DNA of 62,416 bases, filler included, from Candidatus Woesearchaeota archaeon (GTDB lineage: Archaea; Nanobdellota; Nanobdellia; Woesearchaeales; GCA-2687795), in the NCBI GenBank assembly GCA_030753365.1. It is 9 parts of 9 records of this genome, joined end to end, with 100 filler letters (N's around TTAATTAATTAA, not from the genome) between each part and the next. Parts side by side here need not be neighbours in the genome. Positions count along the whole stretch, not along the records: positions 15,987 to 30,821 come from JASMCJ010000056.1; 8 more parts are not named here. One strand, 5' to 3'. Shown here one piece after another: positions 7,679 to 30,821 of this stretch (the stretch's first letter is position 1; each line of letters opens with the position of its first letter). The position numbers were made by a program, and so were the translations under genes. The notes beneath the pieces were generated by a model. It was not told the origin of the DNA and ran no database searches. It saw nothing but the letters and a program-made list of their open reading frames with translations.

Positions 7679-7778
7679 NNNNNNNNNNNNNNNNNNNNNN
7701 NNNNNNNNNNNNNNNNNNNNNNTTAATTAATTAANNNNNNNNNNNNNNNNNNNNNNNNNNNNNNNNNNNNNNNNNNNN
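7679..7778. other. Artificial contig linker
   Basis: N run + TTAATTAATTAA (stops in all frames) + N run, 100 bp. Confidence 0.99.
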
Positions 7779-15986: not shown

Positions 15987-15987
15987 A

Positions 15988-16248
15988 TATTTAAGAGATA
16001 AATATAAATCTCAATTTATTAAGAAGAATAATTTTGATAGATACAATAATTTAAAAAAGAATTACAAAAAACTAACTAAAACTATTGATTCTAAAGATAA
16101 AAAGCTTATAGATTTTCTTTTAAAACAAAAATACTTGTTTAATAAGATAACAGGAATAACTAAGTTAAGTAAAAAAGAAGAAGTTTATTCTGTAAAGGTT
16201 GAAAGCAAATCTCATTCTTTTATTGCGAATGGATTTATTAACCATAAT
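15988..16248 (+). mobile_element. C-terminal part of an intein in GyrA
   Basis: Block F/G-like [22 protein letters not shown] ending His-Asn, followed by +1 Thr of TEARL; lower GC than the extein. Confidence 0.9.
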
Positions 16249-18387
16249 ACTGAAGCAAGGCTTAGCAGGATGGCGGAAGAGCTTCTTGAAGATATTAATA
16301 AAGAGACTGTTAAGTTTGTTCCTAATTATGATAATAGCAAGAATGAGCCTTCTGTGCTTCCTTCAAAGCTGCCTAATCTGCTTATTAATGGATCTTCTGG
16401 AATTGCTGTTGGAATGGCAACGAATATTCCACCTCATAATTTAAGGGAAGTGGCTGAGGGTACTATAAAAGTAATAGATAATCCTGATATAAGCCTTAAT
16501 GAGCTGAACCAAATAATTAAAGGACCTGATTTTCCTACTGGGGGAGTTATTTGCGGTAGGCATGGAATTTTTAATGCATATCTTAAAGGGAAAGGCAAGT
16601 TGCTTGTGAGAGCGAAGACTTCAGTTGAGGATGTTAAAGGCAGGAAGGCGATTATTGTTAATGAAATTCCTTATCAAGTTAATAAGTCGCAGATGATAGA
16701 ACATATTGCTGAACTTGTTAAGGATAAAAAGGTTGAAGGGATTTATGATTTAAGGGATGAGTCAGATAGAACAGGGATGAGAATTGTTATTGAGCTTAAG
16801 CAGGATGCTAATGAGGATATTGTACTTAACCAGTTGTTTAAACATAGTAGAATGCAGACTACTTTTGGAGTTAATACTCTTGCATTGGTTGATAATGCTC
16901 CTAGAATACTTAATCTAAAAGAAATGATTAGTTATTTTATAAAACATAGGCAGAAGGTTGTAAGGAAGAGAACAGAGTTTGATTTGAGGAAGGCAGAAGA
17001 TAGAGCGCATATTCTTGAAGGATTGCTTATTGCATTGGAGAGTATAGATACTATTATAGCTTCTATAAAGAAAAGTAAATCTGTTCTGGATGCAAAGGAA
17101 ATGCTGATGGAGGAGTATGAACTTTCTGAGAAACAGTCTTTGGCAATACTTGATTTGAGGCTGCAGAAATTAACTTCACTTGAACAGGAGAAGATTAAGA
17201 CTGAGCATAAAGAATTGTTAAAAGTGATTGCTGGATTGAAAGAGATTCTTGCTTCTGAGCAGAAGATACTTGATATTATTAAAGAGGAACTTTTGTATTT
17301 GAAACAGAAGTATGGCGATGAAAGAAGGACTGATATTGTTGATATGGAAGAGGAGCTTGAGATTGAAGATCTTATTGAGAGAGAGGATATGGTTGTGACA
17401 ATTACAAGGGATGGCTATATCAAAAGATTGCCTATTGATACTTATAAGCAGCAGAGAAGAGGAGGGAAAGGTATTCTTGCGACTGCTACGAAGGAGGAAG
17501 ATATTGTTGAAGATTTGTTTGTTGCTAATACACTTTCATATATATTGTTCTTTACGAATAAGGGCAGGGCGCATTGGTTAAAAGTTTATGTGATTCCTGA
17601 AGCGAGCAGGCAGGCGAGAGGTAAGGCTATTGTTAATATGCTTAATGTGGATAAGGATGAGAAGGTTACTGCTTATATCCCTGTTGAGAGTTTTGAGAAA
17701 GGGTTTATTATTATGGGCACAAAGAAAGGCACTGTTAAGAAGACTGCTCTTGAGAATTTTTCAAGGCCGAGAAAGGGAGGTATTATAGCAATAAATCTTG
17801 AAGAGAGTGACGAACTTATTAATGTGGTTCTTACAGAAGGTAACCAGCAGATATTGCTTGCTACTAAGAATGGGATGGCTGTTAAGTTTGATGAAAAGAA
17901 TGTCAGGCCTACTGGAAGAAGTTCAATGGGTGTTAGAGGTATTAGGTTGAAAGATAAGGATGAAGTTATTGGGATGGTGAAGAGTGAGGATGAAGGTACT
18001 TTGTTGACGCTTACTGAGAATGGTTATGGGAAGAGAACCAAAGTTTCCGAATATAGATTGATTAACAGGGGCGGTTCAGGAGTGAAGAATATTGTATGCT
18101 CTGAAAGAAATGGCAAGGTTATTTCCATTAAGTCTGTTACTGATGATGATGAAATTTTTATTATTAGCAGGAAGGGTGTTATTATTAGAACTTCTGCTAA
18201 AGGTATTTCTGTTATTGGAAGGAACACTCAGGGTGTGAGACTTATGAGGATGGGTAAGGATGATAAGGTTGTTGGCGCTGCTAAGGTTTTGAAAGAGGAA
18301 GAGAGTGATGATGAAGAGGAATTTGATAAAGAGATTAAAGAGGAGAGCAACGGAGAGACGTTAGAGGTTGTTGAGGGGGAAGAGTAA
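15988..18387 (+). CDS. gyrA: DNA gyrase subunit A (5' truncated, intein-containing)
   Basis: [30 protein letters not shown], GyrA-box QRRGGKG, beta-pinwheel repeats, acidic tail; the frame is open back to the contig start. Confidence 0.95.
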
Positions 18388-18431
18388 GCTTACTGCTTTT
18401 AAATTCAAAATTTAAATAGATAATAAAAATT

Positions 18432-18869
18432 CTAGTTTGTTAAAGCTCCTAGCATGTCACTATTATCTCTGCAAGCTTTGTTAATTCTAATTAGAGCTTT
18501 TTTAACTTCTGATTCATCTTCTTTTATATTAGGAAAATCAGCTTTTTCTGCAAGGAGATCTATGTTATATATATGTTGTAGTAGAGTCTTTAGTCTTGTG
18601 AAGTCAATAGTAATGTCTGTTAATAAGTTGGATAAGTTATGAGTTATCATTAAAATTTTGTGTAAATCTTTTACTTCTCGTTTATTAAATTGCTCTACTT
18701 CTCCTTTTTTTTCTAGAATTTGTAATTCTTTTAGAAAACGTTTTGCTTGCCTTTCTCCCGTTATAGCTTTTCTTAATTCTCTTTTTTCTCCCATGAACCT
18801 AAAGGCTTTAAGATTAGAAACTACCTGCCCTTTTTGCAGGTTTATAGAACCGCCAATGAATTCACCCAT
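18432..18869 (-). CDS. Hypothetical helical protein
   Basis: 145-aa ORF with GGTGA RBS-like sequence upstream; no recognised motif. Confidence 0.55.
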   Translation of the reverse strand: MGEFIGGSINLQKGQVVSNLKAFRFMGEKRELRKAITGERQAKRFLKELQILEKKGEVEQFNKREVKDLHKILMITHNLSNLLTDITIDFTRLKTLLQHIYNIDLLAEKADFPNIKEDESEVKKALIRINKACRDNSDMLGALTN

Positions 18870-18940
18870 TTTGCTATCACCTGTTTGTTTAAGATAATAG
18901 TATATCTTTAGTGTGTCTGTTATTTAAATCTTACTACTCT

Positions 18941-19606
18941 TTATTCTTTTATTATCCCATACCATATCCAGATTACTTTGTCTGCTGCCTTGACGATGTC
19001 TTCTCCCCTGCCCTGAATGATTAGGCAGTTGCCGTCCATGGTTATCTTATTTTCATCATCTTCTTTGATGTAGATGACTGATATGTTGTTATATTGCGTG
19101 CTTTCGCATGTTACAATTGGCCTTGTGGAGCAGGCGTATGATTCGTTGTTTGAGCAGGCAGCTATAGGATTAGTTCCGAATGCCCTTGAAAGGCTTAGGG
19201 CTAGTTCTGTGCTTGCTAAGGCTACGTATGCTTTGTTTTCGCCTGGATCGAAGGTGATGTAAGTGTCTGCTGAAGGGTTGATGTCTGTGTTTTCGTTGAT
19301 ATATACAGGTACGTCTTCTGACTCTTTTGGACCAAACCTTAAGTGAATTTTGTATAGTTCGTCTCCTGACTGCCAGTCTGTGTGCCATAAGCCTGCAATT
19401 TTTATGAATGAGAATCCGTTGTAGGTATATTCTGGATATTTTTCTTCTCCTAGGAGAATTCTTAATGAGAATAGGATTGCAAGGATAGTTATTATTGCAA
19501 CGATTGCAATGAGAAAAGCTTTGTTTTGTTTTTTTTCTGTTTTTTTATCTATTATTTCTTCATCAGGCGTTTCTTTTTCTTTGCTGTTTTCCTGTTCGTT
19601 GTCCAT
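18941..19606 (-). CDS. Single-TM extracellular hypothetical protein
   Basis: N-terminal TM, YTYNGFSF, ITFDP, Cys-containing C-terminal domain; resembles the neighbouring ORF. Confidence 0.7.
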   Translation of the reverse strand: MDNEQENSKEKETPDEEIIDKKTEKKQNKAFLIAIVAIITILAILFSLRILLGEEKYPEYTYNGFSFIKIAGLWHTDWQSGDELYKIHLRFGPKESEDVPVYINENTDINPSADTYITFDPGENKAYVALASTELALSLSRAFGTNPIAACSNNESYACSTRPIVTCESTQYNNISVIYIKEDDENKITMDGNCLIIQGRGEDIVKAADKVIWIWYGIIKE

Positions 19607-19607
19607 T

Positions 19608-20198
19608 TTATTCTATTATGTTAAACATTCCATATAGGATTCTGTCAGAGATTTTTAAGAATTCATTGCCTTTACTGGCTTCAGCGATTATGCAATTATC
19701 TTCCAAGTAAACTCTGGTTGTGTTTGATTCTTTGAAGTAAAGCACTGGTACGTTCTTGGTTGATTGTGAGCAGTCTATGATTGGAATATTATAACTGTTG
19801 TTTGCTGTGAAACCTTTCCTTATGTAAATGTTGAAGAAGTCTGCTAAGATTGGTTCTATGTTGTATTGTATGAGAGCGATTTGCTGGGAGTATTTGTTGT
19901 CAAGGTCATATGTCATATCAACCTCAGCTGTATTTTTTATTCTGGTTATTGCTTCCCTGTCTATGTCAAGCTCTTCGACATCTGAAGGAAAGTAAGAGAA
20001 GGGCACCTGTTTTTTGTTGATTTGTGTTGTAAAGCCGTTGTTTATTCTTGTGAATACTGTGCCTTTGTAGTCTAGTTTTTCTTCAGGGCTTGTGAAGCCG
20101 TAGAACATTACACCAAAGACTGAGCTTATCATGATAAAGCCTATGAAGGCTGCCCAGATTATTTTTGCTTTATTGTTTTCCCTTCTCATTTTGTACAA
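19608..20198 (-). CDS. Single-TM extracellular hypothetical protein (paralogue-like of neighbour)
   Basis: N-terminal TM; PIIDC...VLYFKE...NCII mirrors PIVTC...VIYIKE...NCLI of 18941-19606. Confidence 0.7.
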   Translation of the reverse strand: MYKMRRENNKAKIIWAAFIGFIMISSVFGVMFYGFTSPEEKLDYKGTVFTRINNGFTTQINKKQVPFSYFPSDVEELDIDREAITRIKNTAEVDMTYDLDNKYSQQIALIQYNIEPILADFFNIYIRKGFTANNSYNIPIIDCSQSTKNVPVLYFKESNTTRVYLEDNCIIAEASKGNEFLKISDRILYGMFNIIE

Positions 20199-20376
20199 TG
20201 GTTTATGCTGAGGTTTTTATATCTTTTTATATTATCACCTTGTAGAATCCCTTTCTCGGTAAATAAATGGAGGTAAGATTCCATAGGGCCCAAATCAGAA
20301 AAATTAGAGATATGAACACTAACAAATAAGAAACATTAAATATAAACAGTTAAAACCAAACAAAAAGGGTATTGTT

Positions 20377-21663
20377 ATGGACATAAATCAACAGGCAGAA
20401 GAACTGAATAATATAATAAAACAAGACAATCCAGTGATTTACAGTCTTTTATCTGAAAAAGGTAAAGCTATCTTCTTTCCAAAACAGGGAATCGTAGCTC
20501 AAGCAATAGAAGCAAAAGGAAAAAAAATAAATGCAACAGTTGGAACAGCAATTGAAGATGATGGAACTCCTATGCGCCTGAATTCAATAGCAAAAAACAT
20601 TCTTCTGGATTCAAAAGAAACCTTCCCCTATGCCCCAAGCTATGGGAAACCTGAATTAAGACAAGCCTGGCTAGAGCAAATAAAAAAGAAAAACCCTTCA
20701 CTAACTGCAAAAACATCCCTTCCAATTGTTACGAATGCATTGACCCATGGTCTAAGCATGGTTGGGTATCTATTCATAAGCCCGGAAGACAAAATTATCT
20801 TACCTGATAAATTCTGGGGGAATTATAAACTAGTCTTCGAAAATGCTTATAATGGAATCTTAGATACGTTCAACACTTTCAAAGACAACCAACTGGACCT
20901 GGGAAGTTTCAAAGAAAAATTAACAGAAAAAGGAAAAAAGATCATCCTTCTAAACTTTCCCAACAATCCAACAGGATACACCCCAACAGGAAGTGAAACA
21001 GAAGAAATAATTAATATAATAAAAGAATCAGCAGAACAGGGAAATCAAACATTAGTGATATGTGATGACGCTTACTTTGGATTAGTATATGAAGAGAACA
21101 TCTATAAAGAATCCATATTCTCAAAACTGGCAAGCCTGCATGAAAATGTTCTGGCAATAAAAGTTGATGGCGCAACAAAAGAAGATTATGTATGGGGATT
21201 CAGGGTTGGCTTCATAACTTATGCATCAAAAGGAATAACAGAACAAACATGCGCAGCCTTAGAAGATAAAACAACAGGAGCAATAAGAGGCAATATTTCA
21301 AACACCTCCCACCTTTCCCAAAGCTTGGTGCTAAAAGCGCTTGCATCAGAAACTTACGGAACAGAAAAACAGGAAAAATACGCTCTGTTAGAATCAAGAT
21401 ATGAAAAAGTAAAACAAACATTAAAAAATAACAAATATTCTGAATTTTTCACACCCTTGCCTTACAACTCAGGATATTTTATGTGCATCCAGCTAAAAAA
21501 CTTAGATGCTGAAAAAATAAGAAAAACACTATTAGAAAAATATGATACAGGAGTCATTGCAATAAAGAACCTACTAAGGATAGCGTTCTCAGCAACACCA
21601 GAAAGAGATATTCCTGAATTATTCGAAAATATTTACAATGCATGTAAAGAACAGGTGCCTTAA
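20377..21663 (+). CDS. Class I/II PLP aminotransferase
   Basis: NFPNNPTG, DDAY, DGATKEDYVWGFRVGF. Confidence 0.9.
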   Translation: MDINQQAEELNNIIKQDNPVIYSLLSEKGKAIFFPKQGIVAQAIEAKGKKINATVGTAIEDDGTPMRLNSIAKNILLDSKETFPYAPSYGKPELRQAWLEQIKKKNPSLTAKTSLPIVTNALTHGLSMVGYLFISPEDKIILPDKFWGNYKLVFENAYNGILDTFNTFKDNQLDLGSFKEKLTEKGKKIILLNFPNNPTGYTPTGSETEEIINIIKESAEQGNQTLVICDDAYFGLVYEENIYKESIFSKLASLHENVLAIKVDGATKEDYVWGFRVGFITYASKGITEQTCAALEDKTTGAIRGNISNTSHLSQSLVLKALASETYGTEKQEKYALLESRYEKVKQTLKNNKYSEFFTPLPYNSGYFMCIQLKNLDAEKIRKTLLEKYDTGVIAIKNLLRIAFSATPERDIPELFENIYNACKEQVP

Positions 21664-21664
21664 A

Positions 21665-23452
21665 ATGGAAAAATCAAACTTTTCTTTCTATGATAAACAG
21701 GTAATAATTAAGAGTAATGGTAAGATTTGTAAAAATTCAGAGGACCTAACTAAAACTGAATTATTCAAAAATGTGGTTCATAGATTCTTAGATTATCTTA
21801 GGGAAAGAGATTCTCCTCTTTTGGAAGTGTTCTCGCAGAGAATGTCTAAAGACGAACAAGAGAAAACTATAATTAATCTTTTGCAAAAACTTTCAGAACC
21901 GTCTAAAGAAGAAATAATTAAAACAACTCCGGAATTTACAGATTTTTTTAAAGATAATTATTTACTTCTCCAATTTGTTGAAAACTTATATAATTATTGG
22001 CGTAATTTTGAGAGGTTTTTTGTACGTTATCCAATAGATAATGAAGAAACAAATCTATATAAGAAACCGTATAGAATGTTTAATAGAACAATAGGATCTC
22101 TTAATCACCTTGTTCGTAAAGTTTACAGAGATATTTGTGAAGGGATTACTAATGATCATCCTCGCATATATCGTCAGATACCTGCAGGATGTCAAGTAGG
22201 ACTTATTGTGAATAAAGAAAATTGGTTATGTCCTCCTGCTCCTTATGATAAATTAAAAGATATTCATTTCATTAAGCAGGTTCTTATCGAACCTCCTTTA
22301 ATTATTGACCCTCTTATGAACAAAAGAACTGGTCAATTTAGAAAAGTTGATGTGAATCCACTTGATGACGTACAGTTTAACTGTGAAGATTGGCTGTGTT
22401 ATCCTGCAAAAGTTGGTGACCTGATTATTCATCTTTTTTTCCATAATAAATTTATTGGACTAGGGACTGCTCTTGCGAACTTGTTTGATTTAGCAGATGA
22501 TAATGACCTTAAAAGAAAACCTGATGCTGTATATGCATATGGAGTTCCAGAAGAATCGCTTAAAAAATTTGGAAATCTTCCAACAGTATTTTTTGATGAT
22601 GAAAAAAATAACATACTTGTAGCTGCTGTTCCAGGATCAGATGATTTTGGTTACTTTGGTTATATTAAGAAAATGATGCTTACTTTGCATAATATTATAA
22701 TGATGAAAAGAAGCAGGTTGCCAGTTCATGGAGCTATGGTAAAAATCAGTCTTAAAAATGGAAAATCTGCTAATGTTGTTATTCTAGGAGACACGGGTAC
22801 AGGCAAGTCAGAATCATTAGAAGCATTTCGTGCTCTTGGAGAGAAATACATCCGTGATATGACTATAATATTTGATGACATGGGTTCATTAGAACTTTCA
22901 AAAGATGGCATAATAAAAGCTTATGGGACTGAAACTGGGGCATTTGTCAGATTAGACGATCTTCAGCCAGGATTCGCTTTTGGGAATATTGACAGATCAA
23001 TAATCATGAGTCCTCAAAAGATTAATGCCAGAGCTTTGTTGCCTGTTACAACTCTTAAAGAAGTTCTTCAAGGTTATCCTGTTGATTTCTTGTTATATGC
23101 AAACAATTATGAAGAAGTGGATAATGACCATCCATTTTTTGATGAATTTCATTCTATGGATGATGCACTTGAAGTATTTCGAGAAGGAGCTAGGATGGCT
23201 AAAGGAACAACTACTGAAAAAGGCATAGTTCATTCTTATTTTGCAAATATATTTGGACCTATTCAATATAAAGACCTTCATGAAAAATTAGCAAAAAAAT
23301 ATTTTAAAGCATTATTTGAATCTGGAGTTAAAGTAGCGCAATTGCGAACGCGGCTTGGAATTCCAGGATTTGAAACAAAAGGTCCAAAAAGTGCAGCAGA
23401 AGCGCTCTTTGAGGTTATATCAAAATGTCAGAATTTAACCTCCAGTCTCTGA
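21665..23452 (+). CDS. PEP carboxykinase-like P-loop protein
   Basis: GYIKK, PVHGAM, GDTGTGKSE, IFDDMG, GTETGAFVR and NAR motifs. Start moved to ATG 21665. Confidence 0.75.
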   Translation: MEKSNFSFYDKQVIIKSNGKICKNSEDLTKTELFKNVVHRFLDYLRERDSPLLEVFSQRMSKDEQEKTIINLLQKLSEPSKEEIIKTTPEFTDFFKDNYLLLQFVENLYNYWRNFERFFVRYPIDNEETNLYKKPYRMFNRTIGSLNHLVRKVYRDICEGITNDHPRIYRQIPAGCQVGLIVNKENWLCPPAPYDKLKDIHFIKQVLIEPPLIIDPLMNKRTGQFRKVDVNPLDDVQFNCEDWLCYPAKVGDLIIHLFFHNKFIGLGTALANLFDLADDNDLKRKPDAVYAYGVPEESLKKFGNLPTVFFDDEKNNILVAAVPGSDDFGYFGYIKKMMLTLHNIIMMKRSRLPVHGAMVKISLKNGKSANVVILGDTGTGKSESLEAFRALGEKYIRDMTIIFDDMGSLELSKDGIIKAYGTETGAFVRLDDLQPGFAFGNIDRSIIMSPQKINARALLPVTTLKEVLQGYPVDFLLYANNYEEVDNDHPFFDEFHSMDDALEVFREGARMAKGTTTEKGIVHSYFANIFGPIQYKDLHEKLAKKYFKALFESGVKVAQLRTRLGIPGFETKGPKSAAEALFEVISKCQNLTSSL

Positions 23453-23702
23453 CTGGTGGCAAGCTTTGCTTACTTTCGTTTCCAGAAAGCTGGAAAATTC
23501 TGAGCATGAACTGAGAAATTTGCCTTGCAAACTTCTGGTTTGTTAAAAATCCGAAGGATTTTAAACACTCAAGAACCACCTAGATGGATGGGATGGTAAT
23601 TCGTAGGAATTGTCACATTCCACCCATCTCATGAAATTCAAAGAATTTCCAAGTTCACCAGAAATATTCGATTTCTGCGTGTTTGACCAGCGGTTCTTGA
23701 CA
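23426..23702. repeat. TGTCA...TGACA modular hairpin element, copy 1 (277 bp)
   Basis: TG-TCAGAATTT..AAATTCTGA-GCATG[hairpins]C-TCAAGAACC..GGTTCTTGA-CA, with at least eight short internal hairpins. Confidence 0.8.
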
Positions 23703-23704
23703 AA

Positions 23705-23920
23705 TTAAAATAAACGCTTTTTTAAAATTGAAAATATTAATAAAGCCTTCAATAGAGCTGCCATCAAACCATGTTCCCTTTTCAAGTTCTCTTTCAGCTT
23801 CTCTATGGGGATTGTTACTGATTTTATGATTCCATGGATGTCTGTGAACTGAAGCTGAACTAATTTTATATTATCAGCTTTTGCTTTCTCCAAGGTTTTG
23901 TTTATATTTTCTTCAGTCAT
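23705..23920 (-). pseudogene. glnA: Glutamine synthetase type I N-terminal remnant, frameshifted
   Basis: IKLVQLQFTDIHGIIKSVTIP in one frame, then KGTWFDGSSIEGF in a shifted frame; similarity ends at about residue 60. Confidence 0.85.
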
Positions 23921-25025
23921 TTAGATTCATCATACTCTCAACAGCATCCATAACCTCTTCTACTGTTATCATTTTCATACATAGATTGTCTTTGCATTTT
24001 ATGTGTTTTCCTTTGTAGATTTTTATGCAGGGACTGCATTCTATGCCTTTGAAGATTGAGAGTGTGTGCTTTCCGAATGGGCCGAAGATGACAGGCGTTT
24101 CAGGACCGAAGAGGCCTATGGTTTTGATGTTTTGTGTTGCTGCGATGTGCATTGGACCGGTATCGTTTGAGATGAATAGGTTACAGCTGTTTATTAGCTC
24201 TATTAGATTTGAGAGCCTTGCGCCGCAGAATATTACTGGGTTGTGATTCATTTTGTTTCTTATGTCTAATAGTATTTCTCTTTCATCTTCAGAGCCTGTG
24301 AGAATGATTTTTGCGTTATGGTTTTCTATTAGATTGTCTGCTAAGGATGCGAATTTGTCTTTTGGCCATCTTCTTGATATTACGGTTGGGCCTGAGCCTG
24401 GACAGATGCCTACTATGAAATCGTGTTCTGAGATTTTGTTCTTTTTTAGGAAAGTGATTATGGATGCTTTGTCGCTGTCTGAGACTGTTATCTTTTCACT
24501 TGTTGGTTCTGGATGGATGCCTAATGGCTTTAATAGGTTCATGTTGTTATAGACTGAATGGATTTCTTTGTTGAATTCTATTTTGTCGTTGTATAAGATG
24601 GCTCTTAGCTTGTTTACAAAGCCGATTCTTCTTTTTCCAGCTGTGTAAGCGATTATTGCTGAGATGTTGAGCCAGTGTTCGTAGTCTATTACAAGATCAT
24701 ACTTGTTTCTTATTTGAGATAGTTGTTTTATTAGTCCGAAAAGGCTTAGGTCAACGAAGATTTTGTTGTCTATGTTTCTGTTTTTATAGAATAAATCTTT
24801 GTTCTTTTCAGGAGCTAGGATTGTTATTTCTGCATTAGGATATTTTTCTTTTAATGCCTTGATGCAGGGCAGTACATAGATGTTAGAGCCAATGCCCCAG
24901 AACATTATTATTAGGATTTTTTCTATCTTTTTTGATGGTTTTTTGAATAGTTTGAATAACCATAGGACTAAGATTAAAGGTGTTCCTAGGAATCTGTCAA
25001 TGAATTTTACTAATGAATGGTCCAT
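23913..25025 (-). CDS. Glycosyltransferase family 9 (heptosyltransferase-like)
   Basis: WGIGS, ICPGSG..RRWP, ISNDTGPMHIA, LFGPE motifs. Confidence 0.88.
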   Translation of the reverse strand: MDHSLVKFIDRFLGTPLILVLWLFKLFKKPSKKIEKILIIMFWGIGSNIYVLPCIKALKEKYPNAEITILAPEKNKDLFYKNRNIDNKIFVDLSLFGLIKQLSQIRNKYDLVIDYEHWLNISAIIAYTAGKRRIGFVNKLRAILYNDKIEFNKEIHSVYNNMNLLKPLGIHPEPTSEKITVSDSDKASIITFLKKNKISEHDFIVGICPGSGPTVISRRWPKDKFASLADNLIENHNAKIILTGSEDEREILLDIRNKMNHNPVIFCGARLSNLIELINSCNLFISNDTGPMHIAATQNIKTIGLFGPETPVIFGPFGKHTLSIFKGIECSPCIKIYKGKHIKCKDNLCMKMITVEEVMDAVESMMNLND

Positions 25026-25066
25026 AAATGCATAGAATTCTTCATCATTAATAAATCTTATTCAAG

Positions 25067-25405
25067 TTACTTGAGTTTTTTTTCTATTTTCTTTAATCTT
25101 TCAATGATTTCTCTCATATAAGGATCTTTTGCAGATTGGGCTCTTCTCTCTTCCCTGTGAAAGCCTGCCTTGTCTTCTATGTAGCCGAATAAGACCATTA
25201 GGAAAAGTACTCCTATGAAGATGGGAATGTACCATTTGGTTATATGAATGAGAATGCCATATTCTTGTAGTTTTGAAAGTACAAGAAATAATATCATACC
25301 ACTGTTGAGGATTGCTACCCAGGACATTGTTCTCTGAGCCCAGACTTTGCTGTAGACTAAGAGTTCTCTGAATTTGAAGAATATTGATAATATGATGTTT
25401 GGCAT
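25067..25405 (-). CDS. Small two-TM membrane protein
   Basis: Two hydrophobic helices and a C-terminal coiled coil; ATG at 25405 preferred. Confidence 0.6.
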   Translation of the reverse strand: MPNIILSIFFKFRELLVYSKVWAQRTMSWVAILNSGMILFLVLSKLQEYGILIHITKWYIPIFIGVLFLMVLFGYIEDKAGFHREERRAQSAKDPYMREIIERLKKIEKKLK

Positions 25406-25491
25406 AAGCTGTTTATGGGAGAAGAGGTATATAAAGGCTTTGATATACAAAATCTATTTAAATGAAGCCTGATTTAATGTATATATTATAT

Positions 25492-25613
25492 GCCTCCGTA
25501 GCATAGTAGCCATTGCGGCAGTAATTTTATGTCGAAACTTGTAGCTCTATGCAAGCCATCTGCAGGTCCAAAAGACCGGATTGAGGTCGAGGGTGCAAGT
25601 CCCTCCGGAGGCT
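25492..25613 (+). tRNA. tRNA-Thr(UGU) with three BHB introns (30/31: 25522-25536; 37/38: 25544-25557; 43/44: 25564-25583)
   Basis: Removing the three segments gives a 73-nt cloverleaf: GCCTCCG/CGGAGGC acceptor, GCAGA/TCTGC anticodon stem, CT-TGT-AA loop, GAGGG/CCCTC T-stem, U73. Each junction forms a bulge-helix-bulge; TATA-like box upstream and oligo-T downstream. Confidence 0.88.
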
Positions 25614-25669
25614 TTTTTTCTTCTAAATACCATAATATTTTAAATATCATCTTCTCTTTTCTGTATATT

Positions 25670-28360
25670 ATGCAGGATTTTAACAAGATTGCAAAGAAAT
25701 GGCAGAAGAAATGGGCTGAGGCTGGGATTTTTGAAGTAGAAGAAAAGCCTGGCAAAAAGAAGTTTTACTGTCTTGAAATGTATCCTTATCCTTCAAACCA
25801 GCTACATGTTGGGCATTTGAGGAATTATTCTATTGGAGATTCATTGGCAAGGTTCAAGAGGATGAAAGGGTTTAATGTTCTTTATCCTATGGGTTATGAT
25901 AGTTTTGGTTTGCCAGCAGAGAATGCTGCTATTAAACAGAAGGTTGATCCTGGTGAATGGACACTGAAGAATATTGAGCATATACAGAAGCAGCAGATGT
26001 CAATGGGATTGAGCTATGACTGGAGGAGAAAGGTTTCTTCTATGGATACTGATTATTATAAGTGGAATCAATGGATTTTTCTTAAATTGTATGAGAAAGG
26101 GCTTGCATACAAAAAGACGTCTGCAGTGAATTGGTGCCCTGGATGCAACACTGTGCTTGCTAATGAGCAGGTTGAACAGGGCAAGTGTTGGAGATGCTCT
26201 TCAGAGGTTGAGCAGAAAGAGCTTGAGCAATGGTTCTTTAAGATTACTAAGTATGCAGAGGAGCTGCTTAAGGATATTGATAAATTGGAGAACTGGCCTG
26301 AGAAGGTTAAGATTATGCAAAGGAACTGGATTGGGAAGAGTGAAGGTGTGGATATACTCTTTAAAGTTGAAAATACTGATAGTGTTTTGTCTACTTTTAC
26401 TACAAGGTGCGATACAATTCATAGCGTTACTTTTGTTGTTATGGCTCCTGAACATCCACTTGCAAAGGAGTTTGTTAAGGGCACAAAATATGAGACTGAA
26501 TTTAATAAAGCTTATAAGATAATCCAAAAGCAGTCAACTATCGAGAGAACAACGCCAGAAGGAAAGGATAAGATTGGCTGTTTTCTTGGTAAGTATGCAA
26601 TAAATCCTGTTACTAATGAGAGAATTCCTATCTATATTGCGAATTTTGCTTTGATGGAATATGGCACAGGAATTGTTATGGCTGATGCGCATGACCAGAG
26701 AGATTTTGAGTTTGCAAGGAAGTATAATATTCCTCTAAAATTTGTTATATCAGAAGATGGAGATGCTATTAATCCAGACAAGGCATCAAGAGCTTTCTTG
26801 AATGATGGAATACTTTTTGATTCTGGGAAGTTTTCAGGGATGCATAACAGAGAAGCGTTGCCTTTAATGGCTGACTGGCTTGAAGAAAACAAGTGGGGAA
26901 AGAAAACTGTTAATTACAAGCTTAGAGATTGGTTGATTTCACGTCAGAGATATTGGGGGACACCGATTCCTATGGTTTATTGTGATAAGTGCGGAGTTGT
27001 TCCTGTGCCTCTTGATGAACTGCCAGTTAAACTTCCTAAGAATGTTAAGTTTACAGGGAAAGGAAATCCTCTGGAAACTTCTGAGAGTTTTGTGAATTGC
27101 AAGTGTCCTAAGTGCAATGGCAAAGCTAGGAGAGAGACGGATACAATGGATACCTTTGTTGACAGTTCATGGTATTTTCTTCGGTACTGTTCGGCTAAGT
27201 TTGAGAAGCTGCCTTTTGATAAGAAAGCTGTTGGATATTGGATGCCGGTTGACCAATATATCGGCGGGATTGAGCATGCAGTGATGCATCTTCTTTATGC
27301 AAGGTTTTTTACTAAAGCGTTGCGTGATTTAGGGTTGCATGATGTTGATGAGCCTTTCTCAAGATTGCTTTGTCAGGGTATGGTTATTAAGGATGGGGCA
27401 AAGATGAGCAAAAGTTTGGGGAATGTTGTTGACCCTGCTGAGATTATTGATAAGTTTGGGCCTGATACTGCTAGATTGTTTATATTGTTTGCAGCATTGC
27501 CTGAGAAGGAGTTGGACTGGAATGACCAAGGGGTTAATGGGGCTTATAGGTTTTTGAACAAAGTGTATAATCTTGTTAATGATAATAAGAAGGAGATATC
27601 GTTTGGGAAGATTAATTCTGCTAAGCTTAATGATAAGGATAAGTTTGTGTTGAGTAGGGTACATGTTACTATTAAAGATGTGACTGCTCATATTGAAAAG
27701 TTTGAATATAGCCTTGCGATTGGGAAAACTATGGAACTTGTTAGTGATTTGTCTAAATATAAAGAGAAGGATAAGGCTGTGTTTGGAGAGGCTGTTAAGA
27801 ATGTTGTATTATTACTTGCGCCGTTTGTTCCGCATGTTGCTGAAGAGCTATATGAGGTTGTAGGTTGTAAAGGGAAGAAGTTTGTTTCTTTAGAAGAATG
27901 GCCTGAGTTTGATAAGAAGCTTATTGATGAGGAAGCGATTGCAAGCATTGGGTTTTCTGAAAATGTTAGAGCTGATATACTTTCAGTGCTTGAGTTGATT
28001 AAGCTGGAAAGCCCTAAGAAGATTAGATTGTTTGTTTCAGAGAAATGGAAGTATAACTTTTTTGATAAATTGAAGAAGGCACTTGAGAAATCTAAGGATT
28101 TTAAGAAAGTGCTTGGAGAGGTTATGGATAAAGAGCATGGAAAGGATATTTCAAAGATGCTGCCTAAGTTTATTAAAGAGCCGTCAAGAGTTCCTCAGTT
28201 TATACTTAGCCAGAAGAAGGAGTATGATATTCTGAAGGATTATGTTTCTAAGCTTGAGAATGAGTTTAAGTGCAGTGTTGAGGTTGTTAAGGCTGAAGAC
28301 AGTGACGAAGGCAAGGCTAAGACTGCAATGCCTGGAAAGGTTGGAGTATTAATTATTTAG
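25670..28360 (+). CDS. leuS: Leucine--tRNA ligase, bacterial-type core
   Basis: HVGH, DWLISRQRYWGTPIP, GGIEHA, KMSKS. Real start is ATG 25670, because the ORF-track extension overlaps the tRNA. Confidence 0.95.
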   Translation: MQDFNKIAKKWQKKWAEAGIFEVEEKPGKKKFYCLEMYPYPSNQLHVGHLRNYSIGDSLARFKRMKGFNVLYPMGYDSFGLPAENAAIKQKVDPGEWTLKNIEHIQKQQMSMGLSYDWRRKVSSMDTDYYKWNQWIFLKLYEKGLAYKKTSAVNWCPGCNTVLANEQVEQGKCWRCSSEVEQKELEQWFFKITKYAEELLKDIDKLENWPEKVKIMQRNWIGKSEGVDILFKVENTDSVLSTFTTRCDTIHSVTFVVMAPEHPLAKEFVKGTKYETEFNKAYKIIQKQSTIERTTPEGKDKIGCFLGKYAINPVTNERIPIYIANFALMEYGTGIVMADAHDQRDFEFARKYNIPLKFVISEDGDAINPDKASRAFLNDGILFDSGKFSGMHNREALPLMADWLEENKWGKKTVNYKLRDWLISRQRYWGTPIPMVYCDKCGVVPVPLDELPVKLPKNVKFTGKGNPLETSESFVNCKCPKCNGKARRETDTMDTFVDSSWYFLRYCSAKFEKLPFDKKAVGYWMPVDQYIGGIEHAVMHLLYARFFTKALRDLGLHDVDEPFSRLLCQGMVIKDGAKMSKSLGNVVDPAEIIDKFGPDTARLFILFAALPEKELDWNDQGVNGAYRFLNKVYNLVNDNKKEISFGKINSAKLNDKDKFVLSRVHVTIKDVTAHIEKFEYSLAIGKTMELVSDLSKYKEKDKAVFGEAVKNVVLLLAPFVPHVAEELYEVVGCKGKKFVSLEEWPEFDKKLIDEEAIASIGFSENVRADILSVLELIKLESPKKIRLFVSEKWKYNFFDKLKKALEKSKDFKKVLGEVMDKEHGKDISKMLPKFIKEPSRVPQFILSQKKEYDILKDYVSKLENEFKCSVEVVKAEDSDEGKAKTAMPGKVGVLII

Positions 28361-28454
28361 TTTGGGTTTTATACCCCGATGCTTGCATCGGCTTAATACG
28401 CAAACTAAATACTAAAAATACCCCGCAGCTTGCTGCGATTGGGATTTTTTATTG
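28356..28454 (-). repeat. 99-bp double-hairpin repeat, copy 2 (overlaps the leuS stop codon)
   Basis: Identical in reverse complement to 15788-15886; lies between convergent leuS and GNAT genes. Confidence 0.85.
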
Positions 28455-28464
28455 AGTGACTTTT

Positions 28465-28899
28465 TTATCTCACTTTGTATTCCATCTCAACATGAGGAAT
28501 TCCATGCATATCAAAAGGCTCGGAAACAGCATTAAACCCACATTTCTCATAGAATTTTTGTGCATGAACCTGGCTATTTAACCAAATTCTTTTTGGCTTA
28601 AGCTTCATAATTTCATTAACCATAAATCCCACAAGCTTTTTAGCAATTCCTTTTCTCCTATATTCCTTCTTGGTTGTCATTCTGCCTATATGAAACTCAC
28701 CTTTCTTTTCTTCTTTGAACCTGGCTGTTGAAACAACCTTGTTATCTGCTAATGCAATAAAATGTTTAGAAATCTTATCATCTTCATCCGGCTCCCAGCC
28801 AGACTCAAACTTTTGCTCTTTAATAAATACGTCTACCCGAAGCCTGATATAATCAATAAATTCATTAATTGTTTCAACTTGTTTGTATCTTATTTCCAT
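28465..28899 (-). CDS. GNAT acetyltransferase (ElaA-like)
   Basis: LRVDVFIKEQ, IGRM, RRKGIA, FYEKCGF, GIPHVEM; start at ATG 28899. Confidence 0.88.
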   Translation of the reverse strand: MEIRYKQVETINEFIDYIRLRVDVFIKEQKFESGWEPDEDDKISKHFIALADNKVVSTARFKEEKKGEFHIGRMTTKKEYRRKGIAKKLVGFMVNEIMKLKPKRIWLNSQVHAQKFYEKCGFNAVSEPFDMHGIPHVEMEYKVR

Positions 28900-28913
28900 T
28901 TTGTAAAAAAAGT

Positions 28914-29187
28914 AGGAAGGCATACCAAGAGATGGACACGAGTTATAACTGCTAGTTGACCTTGAGCTTTCCTAGACTCCGCTACCCTTTAAGCATCATC
29001 TTAATAAGTTATGGCTGCTATGTTCCCATCCTGACCAAGTTCCTTAAAAAGATAATCCAAAAGGACAGAGTTTCATTGTCCAGTCCAAGACTAACGGTTA
29101 AGGCTCATGCCTCTCTCTTGATTTCAGCTCCGTCTGAAGCGTGTCTACGGTAACAGGAGAGCGCTAATCTCCCAGCCTAGCCTTCCC
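28914..29187 (-). ncRNA. ffs: Archaeal SRP (7S) RNA
   Basis: Minus strand begins GGGAAGGCTAGGCTGGGAGATTAGCGCTCTCCTGTTACC (Alu-domain-like). It has a helix-6 GAAA loop, helix-8 GGTCAGGATGGGAACATAGCAGCC, and 5' GGAAGGC pairing with 3' GCCTTCC. Confidence 0.88.
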
Positions 29188-29270
29188 ATAACCCTATAAT
29201 ATAGAGCGTTTTTTAAGGTTTTCTATGGATTTTCGAATAATTTAAATATATCACTCGGATTATATTGGCT

Positions 29271-30821
29271 ATGTTAAGAACTCATACCTGTGGAGAGCTA
29301 AGGAAGAAGGATATTAAGGAGAATATTACTGTTTGCGGCTGGCTGCAGTCTAGCCGTGACCATGGTGGAATTATCTTTATTGACGTTAGAGATAGGTATG
29401 GGTTGACACAGATAGTTTTTGATCCTAAACATAACAAAGAGGCGCATAAGAAGGCTGAAAAGCTTGGAAGAGAGTATGTTTTACAGGTGAAGGGTAAGGT
29501 TAGAGCAAGAGGTAAAGGGCTTGAAAATCCTAAGTTAAATACTGGAGATATTGAGGTTCTAGTTGATGAGCTTAATGTTCTTAATAAAGCAGAGGTTCCT
29601 CCTATAGAAGTTGATGATAATAAGGAAGCAAGTGAAGATTTGAGGTTGAAGTATAGGTTTCTTGACCTTAGAAGGCCTATGATGCAGAAGAGGTTGGATA
29701 TAAGGCATAAGGCTGCTGAAGCTACCAGGAAATATTTAAATTCTCAGAGTTTTATGGAGATTGAGACACCGCTTCTTATAAGGGCAACGCCTGAAGGGGC
29801 AAGGGATTATATTGTACCTTCAAGAACAATGCCAGGCAGGTTTTTTTCATTGCCGCAATCTCCTCAACTTTATAAGCAGATTTTGATGGTTTCTGGATGT
29901 GACAGGTATTACCAACTTGCGCGTTGTTTAAGAGATGAGGATTTGAGAGCGGACAGGCAGCCTGAGTTTACACAGATAGATTTAGAGATGAGCTTTGCTG
30001 ATGAGGATGATATTATGGTTATGTCTGAGGGGCTTGTCAAAGAAATTTTTAAGAAAGGTGTTGGGAAGAATATTAAAGTTCCTTTCCAAAGAATGACGTA
30101 TAAGGAAGTTATGGAGAGGTATGGCTCTGATAAGCCTGACCTTCGGTATGGGTTGGAGCTTACTGATGTTACTTCTCTTGTTCATAAGTCTGACTTTGGA
30201 GTTTTCAAAAATGCTGAACAAGTGAAGTGCATTAACCCTGAGAAGGATTTTTCAAGGAAAGAGCTTGATGAATATATTGATTTCTGTATTAAGAATGGGG
30301 CTAAGGGTATGGCCTGGATGAAGATTACAGATAAAGGCATGGAGTCGAGTGTTACTAAATTCTTTAAGCCTGAGATGCTTAAGAAGATACAGAAGGTTGC
30401 AAATGCTAAAAAAGGTGTTTTGATGTTTATAGCTGACACGCCTAAGCTTGTTGCTGAGGTTTTGGACAGGCTTAGAAGGAAGCTTGCTGATGATCTTGAG
30501 CTTTATGATAAGAAAGAGTTGAGGTTTTGCTGGGTGACAGATTTTCCATTGTTTGAGCATGATGAGGAGTCAGATTCATGGGTGCCAATGCATCATATTT
30601 TTTCAATGCCGCATGATAAGTTTGTAGGCAAAATGGAGAATGATCCTTCTGTTATAACTGGTAAACTGTATGACTGCGTGCTTAACGGTGTTGAGCTTGG
30701 CGGTGGTTCTGTGAGGATTCATAAGAAAGATGTGCAAGAAGAAGCTTTAAAGGTTATAGGTATGAGTTATGAGGAAGCAAAGGAGAGGTTTGGCTTTCTT
30801 TTAGATTCTTTTAGGTATGGA
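29271..30821 (+). CDS. aspS: Aspartate--tRNA ligase, bacterial-type, probably non-discriminating (3' truncated)
   Basis: MLRTHTCGEL, RDHGG (His typical of ND enzymes), TPEGARDY, LPQSPQ, RADRQPEFTQ, GAD insertion. Confidence 0.93.

Follow-up and report, generated by a model that had tools for sequence, protein, structure and literature searches.

The locus described here encodes a tRNA-Thr(UGU) in a Woesearchaeota genome and lies within a 62,416-nt stretch of assembled DNA (the window). Between positions 7679 and 58572 the window consists of several contigs with runs of N between them, of which 15987–30821 alone forms a single contig. Three inserts of 15, 14 and 20 nt, placed between tRNA nucleotides 30/31, 37/38 and 43/44, surround a 73-nt cloverleaf (Table 1), as the preliminary description had proposed. 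The same model was returned by a purpose-written cloverleaf parser, which relies on hand-set weights and a general tRNA consensus, admits insertions free of cost and has no term for bulge-helix-bulge (BHB) motifs; although blind to these motifs, it placed the gene ends, the insert positions and lengths, and the anticodon UGU exactly. The gene scored 57.1 in a set of 531 candidate regions, in which 36 distinct loci of the genome reached 51–87 and the next candidate 29.3. The spliced 73-nt form was identified as tRNA-Thr(tgt) by ARAGORN, whereas the unspliced gene received no call in an ARAGORN scan of the window, was mislabelled tRNA-His with the intron option, and had no match over it to Rfam RF00005 at E ≤ 10. 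The expectation that standard annotation would miss the gene thus held, and the predicted leuS reading frame does extend upstream over it. Genome-wide, ARAGORN with the intron option reported four tRNA genes, one mislabelled, versus at least 36 found by the parser; tRNA counts of such genomes are therefore underestimated. An archaeal SRP RNA is also present in the window; the LeuRS matches PF13603 and the AspRS has a GAD domain, both of which we take to be bacterial-type features.

Table 1 Features of the tRNA-Thr(UGU) locus, in window coordinates
Feature	Position	Strand	Remarks
TATA-like box	25457..25464	+	28–35 nt upstream of G1; from the sequence; putative promoter element
tRNA-Thr(UGU) gene	25492..25613	+	contig C56, 9506–9627, of this genome (G000)
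Exon 1, nt 1–30	25492..25521	+	C25–C28 form the 30/31 central helix
D-arm, nt 10–20	25501..25510	+	complementary to 5' part of 37/38 intron; duplex −12.3 kcal/mol, z −3.4
Intron 30/31, 15 nt	25522..25536	+	position shared by many orthologues
Exon 2, nt 31–37	25537..25543	+	anticodon UGU at 25540–25542 (parser, ARAGORN)
Intron 37/38, 14 nt	25544..25557	+	25544–25552 can pair with D-arm
Intron 37/38, inner segment	25552..25555	+	can pair with C32–G35 (own BHB)
Intron 37/38, 3' end	25555..25557	+	can pair with G45-G46-U47
Exon 3, nt 38–43	25558..25563	+	A38–U41 form the 43/44 central helix
Intron 43/44, 20 nt	25564..25583	+	inner stem of 4 bp (parser, folding)
Exon 4, nt 44–73	25584..25613	+	T-loop G55, discriminator U73, CCA not encoded
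T-run	25613..25619	+	straight after U73; from the sequence; putative terminator
leuS	25670..28360	+	likely true start 25670; Pfam LeuRS matches from residue 10 of this ATG
ORF extending leuS upstream	25529..28360		overlaps the tRNA gene
SRP RNA	28914..29187	−	archaeal
AspRS	29265..30820		GAD domain

The gene carries an NGU anticodon, G1-C72, C2-G71 and U73, which we take to be the tRNA-Thr identity set; orthologues carry the same set, and the exons of intronless orthologues match the spliced form. The search for another Thr(UGU) gene, which had been recommended, found none in this assembly (94.5% complete); an apparent second copy at C47:671-817 was reassigned to Lys(UUU) after BHB motif scoring. 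In long ORFs, Thr is most often encoded by ACA (4833 of 10826). The three introns have no near copies elsewhere in the genome, the gene has no match in a genome of the same genus (G001, 75% complete), and the Thr search pattern had no matches in viral contigs. The gene is covered from end to end and without any difference by contigs from three of four sequencing runs, which belong to three studies; the fourth run has no cover over the introns. No DNA form without introns was found in the reads or contigs of the compared runs, the absence of which contigs cannot prove. The stretch is contained in 20 DNA runs from 14 studies, nearly all marine (one run may be the source), and the host is probably a marine Woesearchaeota. 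The titled loci listed for the D-arm motif of the gene (80/119) are mainly Woesearchaeota or Nanoarchaeota; the remainder includes many with the title 'uncultured Methanosarcinales', which is probably a mislabelling. A18 in place of the usual G18 and G55 in the T-loop, both remarked on previously, are real and typical of the lineage: G55 occurs in 150/150 collected Thr genes, a collection for which one search pattern fixed A18 and the other G55. Among the Thr genes L002–L203, A18 is mostly accompanied by G55, and the Thr(GGU) of this genome (C15:12543-12615) has G18 and U55; A18/G55 may possibly act as a compensating tertiary pair in Thr genes of the order.

Interrupted genes dominate the tRNA set of this genome. 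Introns are present in 31 of the 36 curated genes, 63 in total, and three inserts were parsed in Ser(GGA), the 37th gene, giving at least 37 genes with about 66 introns. Multi-intron tRNAs had been called rare, which does not apply to this lineage; the single-copy tRNA-Thr(UGU) with its three BHB introns is a gene of a known kind, common there. Four introns each were parsed in Ile(GAU) (C28:21033-21201, −), Asn(GUU) (C61:35093-35247, −) and Tyr(GUA) (C47:1381-1564, −), and our parser, whose set is incomplete, detected no gene for Ala(UGC), Pro(UGG) or Leu(UAG). In the accessible part of the tRNAscan-SE 2.0 paper, three introns are the archaeal maximum, and the 71 introns in 46 genes of Pyrobaculum calidifontis, up to three per gene, are the highest load assessed (PMC8450103). 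Most tRNA genes are interrupted in both organisms; they differ in that here, by our own parser and in an incomplete set, three genes carry four introns and the Ser(GGA) gene adds a further case of three.

Several further features of the tRNA genes were recorded. Introns at 59/60 number 16 and mostly end in GAAAG (C13:1937-2176, C15:19821-20012, C3:1314-1462, C28:21033-21201, C58:960-1115); two of 103 nt and two of 40 nt are near copies across different isotypes. Such near-copy introns in different isotypes resemble the intron transposition described for Thermoproteales. The gene at C13:1937-2176 is a tRNA-Ile with anticodon UAU, and only two CAU genes were found. The tRNA-Glu(UUC) (C20:15112-15267, −) has an acceptor-stem intron for which 32- and 52-nt parses both fit, possibly nested. 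The Tyr gene of C47, like L204, L211, L232 and L245, has a 35/36 intron inside the anticodon together with a long 37/38 intron that has a weak BHB; by eye, C/D-box-like words occur in the long 37/38 introns of Tyr, Trp, Met, Phe and Leu(CAA). In other genomes, L056 (G026) and L116 are intronless tRNA-Thr genes with anticodon AGU, to our knowledge unusual in archaea. Orphan copies of the 5' end of the tRNA, resembling insertion scars, lie 90–135 nt upstream of an intact Thr gene in L009 (1366-1500), L120 and L023 (396-487).

Each junction of tRNA-Thr(UGU) has a 4-bp central helix and 3-nt bulges, with the pairs originally described: CGGC/GTCG with bulges AG·T and AA·A at 30/31, CTTG/CAAG with TA·G and CC·A at 37/38, and ATCT/GGAT with GC·A and TG·A, plus an inner stem GGTC/GACC, at 43/44. 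The corresponding forms are h1-H(3 WC+1 GU)-h'1, h1-H(4 WC)-h'1 and h3-H(3 WC+1 GU)-h'4, and the flanks measure just 1 bp at 30/31 and on the inside of 37/38.

The genome encodes the ligase RtcB and, at C7:10325-10924 on the minus strand, a single EndA of 200 aa with no tandem units; no EndA beta gene was matched in the genome, in a search that a very divergent or unassembled one could escape. Tyr136, His146, Lys177 and the acidic VDDEGD of loop L10 align with Methanocaldococcus jannaschii EndA (PDB 1a79) with single-residue gaps only, and the C-terminal strand is part of the same chain. The alignment shows none of the inserts of 2cv8 (10 aa), 3iey_A (6 aa before His) and 4fz2, nor is any of the specificity loops CSL, ASL and L3, positioned after the available portion of PMC3488258, visible in it near the active site; EndA thus lacks the insertions of the enzymes from Sulfolobus, Nanoarchaeum and ARMAN-2. 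All five relatives inspected have one EndA gene, and the three that were aligned share the same build. Classified in this way, EndA appears to be a single, loop-less alpha4-like subunit. The relaxed-specificity endonuclease suggested in the preliminary description finds support in the substrates but not in the protein, which has no visible CSL, ASL or Nanoarchaeum-type insert: a flank or a helix pair is missing from 13 of the 41 non-canonical introns in the genome, so the enzyme can probably cope with relaxed motifs. Kaneta 2018, in the part available (PMC5829648), ties DPANN alpha4 EndAs with an L3 loop to tRNA disruption and expects undetected genes; a single-subunit enzyme and many disrupted tRNA genes are shared, but the EndA described here has no insert, and their Woesearchaeota call may differ. 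In two relatives (L306:2064-3005, L307:2092-2991), an RNase Z-like gene, recognized by eye from its His motif, stands head to head with endA.

Comparative evidence on the 43/44 intron was gathered with search patterns that specify nothing upstream of A38, the matches being parsed afterwards. The intron is present in 48 of 240 distinct genes (18 Thr, 7 Ile, 11 iMet, 7 Asn and 5 Tyr; four from this genome), and every one of the 48, across five isotypes, also has a 37/38 intron. The last base of that 37/38 intron, which is unpaired in its own motif and faces G45, is in every case a pyrimidine and thus capable of pairing with G45 (42 genes with C, 6 with U); among genes that have a 37/38 but no 43/44 intron, a pyrimidine stands there in 36/138 (Thr 18/78, Ile 9/30, iMet 9/30). 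Among Thr(UGU) 37/38 introns ending in YAAG-NN, NN is CC in 18/18 genes with a 43/44 intron versus 1/23 without. The pattern spans 26 genomes and 21 families, the unpublished genome excluded. In genomes that possess a 43/44 gene, other genes without this intron have a 37/38 intron ending in a purine (Ile in G094, G196 and G266; iMet in G295 and G067). The 43/44 intron of Thr(UGU) may have one single origin. In the Thr(UGU) gene L022, a 17-nt tandem duplication has produced an insert near 43/44 that comes with a complementary central helix; this may be an intron birth or an assembly error.

Control loci were available in 30/37 genomes for Ile and 30/51 for iMet, and Tyr genes entered the last-base test only. 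Left out of the counts were L219, L223, L229, L238, L239 and L241 (43/44 intron absent or no tRNA), L243 (no parse), L237 (from the unpublished genome G209), L191 (cut off), L022, L081 and L121 (parse unclear), L005, L023, L026, L029 and L134 (missed by the anchor), and duplicates; the anchor-set genes L209, L220 and L221 were excluded from the register and shuffled-cost analyses. All claims are independent of the unpublished genomes G209 and G132. The genes counted are kin, so Fisher and rank tests overstate the associations.

The preliminary description missed a second complementarity, between the 5' part of the 37/38 intron and the D-arm, which by modelling would favour the 30/31 motif and mask that of 37/38. 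In the predicted fold of the full precursor, nt 10–20 pair with the 37/38 intron over its first nine bases, and the duplex prolongs the outer arm of the 30/31 motif by using the strand that this motif displaces. When duplexes of 37/38 introns with their own nt 8–22 were compared with shuffles (p ≤ 0.05), they were significant in 39/58 genes with a 28/29, 29/30 or 30/31 intron versus 5/123 without. The contrast was 22/22 versus 2/40 in Thr(UGU), 6/9 versus 0/12 in Thr(GGU) and 5/5 versus 0/2 in Asn, and was weak in Ile (3/7 versus 3/30) and iMet (3/15 versus 0/26). The best D-arm partner of a 37/38 intron is that of its own isotype, and the duplex register shifts with the position of the upstream intron, from 5/6 nt for 30/31 (22/22 Thr(UGU)) to mostly 7/8–9 for 28/29. 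An unbiased set collected on exon 1 alone gave 11/14 versus 1/54, and among its Thr genes a 37/38 intron accompanied 14/15 with an upstream intron versus 54/95 without. With the native rather than a shuffled 5' part, the upstream motif is cheaper in 45/55 genes and the 37/38 motif dearer in 44/55. Exceptions exist: in this genome the complementarity is absent from Thr(CGU), Leu(CAA) and Leu(UAA), all with 30/31 and 37/38 introns, and two Thr genes (L006, L112) have a 30/31 intron with no 37/38 intron.

Predicted folding costs agree with removal of the 30/31 and 43/44 introns before 37/38. In the full precursor at 37 °C, with the central helix formed and the bulges free, the computed cost is 1.7 kcal/mol for the 43/44 motif, 2.4 for 30/31 and 10.0 for 37/38, and both outer motifs open jointly at 4.0 kcal/mol. 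The strict 37/38 motif drops in silico from 16.3 kcal/mol to 7.2–7.4 after removal of 30/31, when its outer helix grows from 1 to 5 bp; the final motif still costs 5.8–7.4 kcal/mol. Removal of 37/38 first raises the 43/44 cost from 1.7 to 5.6 kcal/mol. Across the collected genes, the 43/44 motif is cheaper than that of 37/38 in 42/43, the 37/38 motif is the dearest in nearly all, and the outer pair of the 43/44 motif is lost in 43/43 tested genes once 37/38 is removed, the motif not becoming dearer in 7/43. In these calculations the motif of the last intron forms only after the others have been removed, as in nested multi-intron genes. Because the genes are related and nearest-neighbour energies handle BHB bulges poorly, the statistics and energies are a pattern, not proof, of splicing order.

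The most probable reading of these data is that the endonuclease and RtcB splice the three introns in a preferred order in which the 37/38 intron acts as a splint and leaves last. Its 5' end would pair with D-arm nt 10–20, the strand displaced by the 30/31 motif, while its 3' end would pair with G45-G46-U47 and so supply the outer helix of 43/44. Since each of these pairings occupies bases that belong to the 37/38 motif itself, the 43/44 and 30/31 introns would go first. In the full precursor, the two outer motifs would be open together and that of 37/38 hidden; at the two outer sites, whichever is processed first, EndA would cut and RtcB would join. Refolding of the D-arm and anticodon stem would then present the 37/38 motif for the last cut, and CCA would be added. 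If the 37/38 intron were removed first, the 43/44 motif would be left without its outer helix and in competition with the anticodon stem; a 43/44 intron without the outer pair might still be cut by a tolerant enzyme. The preliminary description had already proposed that the outer helix of 43/44 and the canonical BHB are mutually exclusive and that 37/38 is removed last, and the folding costs and the covariation in 48 genes speak for both.

An unlikely alternative is that all three introns are real but that a tolerant endonuclease removes them without a fixed sequence of steps; the D-arm complementarity and the terminal pyrimidine would then be relics of intron origin or shared descent. The relaxed motifs common in this genome, the exceptions to the D-arm pairing, the 30/31 introns that stand alone and the non-independence of kin genes would all suit it. 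It fits poorly with a pattern that recurs in five isotypes with differing intron and D-arm sequences and in so many genomes and families, with the purine-ending 37/38 introns of sister genes within 43/44 genomes, and with a D-arm register that follows the intron position. Quite improbable is an order that is real but dictated by nothing more than the enzyme or motif stability, with 37/38 always last and the middle intron no helper. Such an order is described for Cyanidioschyzon merolae, where, in the accessible text of PMC3728597, RT-PCR shows 37/38 removed last and the order following motif free energy although the motifs fold independently, and a 37/38 motif that is nearly always the dearest agrees with it; it leaves unexplained why bases unpaired in the 37/38 motif, the last base and the 5' part, covary with other introns, and why shuffling the 5' part makes the upstream motif dearer in most genes. 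The 20-nt insert at 43/44 could in principle be a long variable arm, in which case the gene would hold two introns and specify a class II-like tRNA-Thr: the 93-nt form too is called tRNA-Thr by ARAGORN, and the insert contains a 4-bp hairpin. This is very improbable, and on the sequence evidence the insert is an intron: it follows BHB geometry, its 3' end is complementary to nt 38–41 in 47/48 genes with four different exon sequences between them, its second base begins an inner stem of 2 bp or more in 48/48, 29/30 non-Thr genes are fully paired although the search pattern tolerated mismatches, and orthologues with the same exons lack the insert. A pseudogene or assembly artefact is scarcely credible, since, although another copy could be missing from the incomplete assembly, contigs of three other studies hold the identical gene, its stems are intact, 17 other Thr genes show a conserved gene with compensatory changes, and a TATA-like box and a T-run frame it.

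Ordered splicing with the 37/38 intron as splint has partial counterparts in known systems. Nested tRNA genes of Thermoproteales have up to three short BHB introns (Sugahara 2007, 2008; Tocchini-Valentini 2009, as related in the available parts of PMC3728597, PMC8450103 and PMC4033280), and the accessible portions of PMC4090602 and PMC3978253 likewise describe multi-intron tRNAs with stepwise motifs in that group. Multiple short BHB introns, one of which must leave before the next motif forms, are common to both; here, however, the introns removed first appear to depend on the last one, and the enzyme is alpha4-like in another lineage rather than (alpha-beta)2. In C. merolae, 37/38 is likewise the last to leave, a result of RT-PCR there and predicted here from sequence and folding; that organism is a eukaryote whose motifs fold independently, whereas the motifs described here share bases and exclude or support each other. 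The available parts of PMC7714728, PMC12397907, PMC6379350 and PMC3293823 contained nothing further for comparison. Multi-intron genes and stepwise splicing are already known; this gene is set apart by the predicted two-sided dependence of the outer introns on the canonical 37/38 intron, with covariation in five isotypes, and by the loop-less enzyme. In the literature searched, a scope outside which Sugahara 2007 and Tocchini-Valentini 2009 fall, no description of splint-type dependence was found, nor any paper on tRNA intron order in Woesearchaeota or on an intron supporting its neighbours' motifs.

In the accepted view, intron-rich tRNA sets follow from endonucleases that have gained specificity loops. 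Intron loads in the Woesearchaeota lineage are among the highest, no such loop is visible in its enzyme, and its substrates appear to carry their own folding aids. More tentatively, and with slightly less than even confidence, we propose that the Woesearchaeota 37/38 intron serves as a built-in RNA chaperone, which builds the neighbouring splice motifs while hiding its own, enables an alpha4 endonuclease that has no loop to handle densely interrupted tRNAs, and acts as a ratchet by which introns accumulate. If the ratchet is true, a 43/44 intron could persist only next to a 37/38 intron, whose own loss would from then on be barred. The tRNA-Thr(UGU) gene offers a handle, by point mutation, on what determines the order of splicing, and may suggest why tRNA introns persist.
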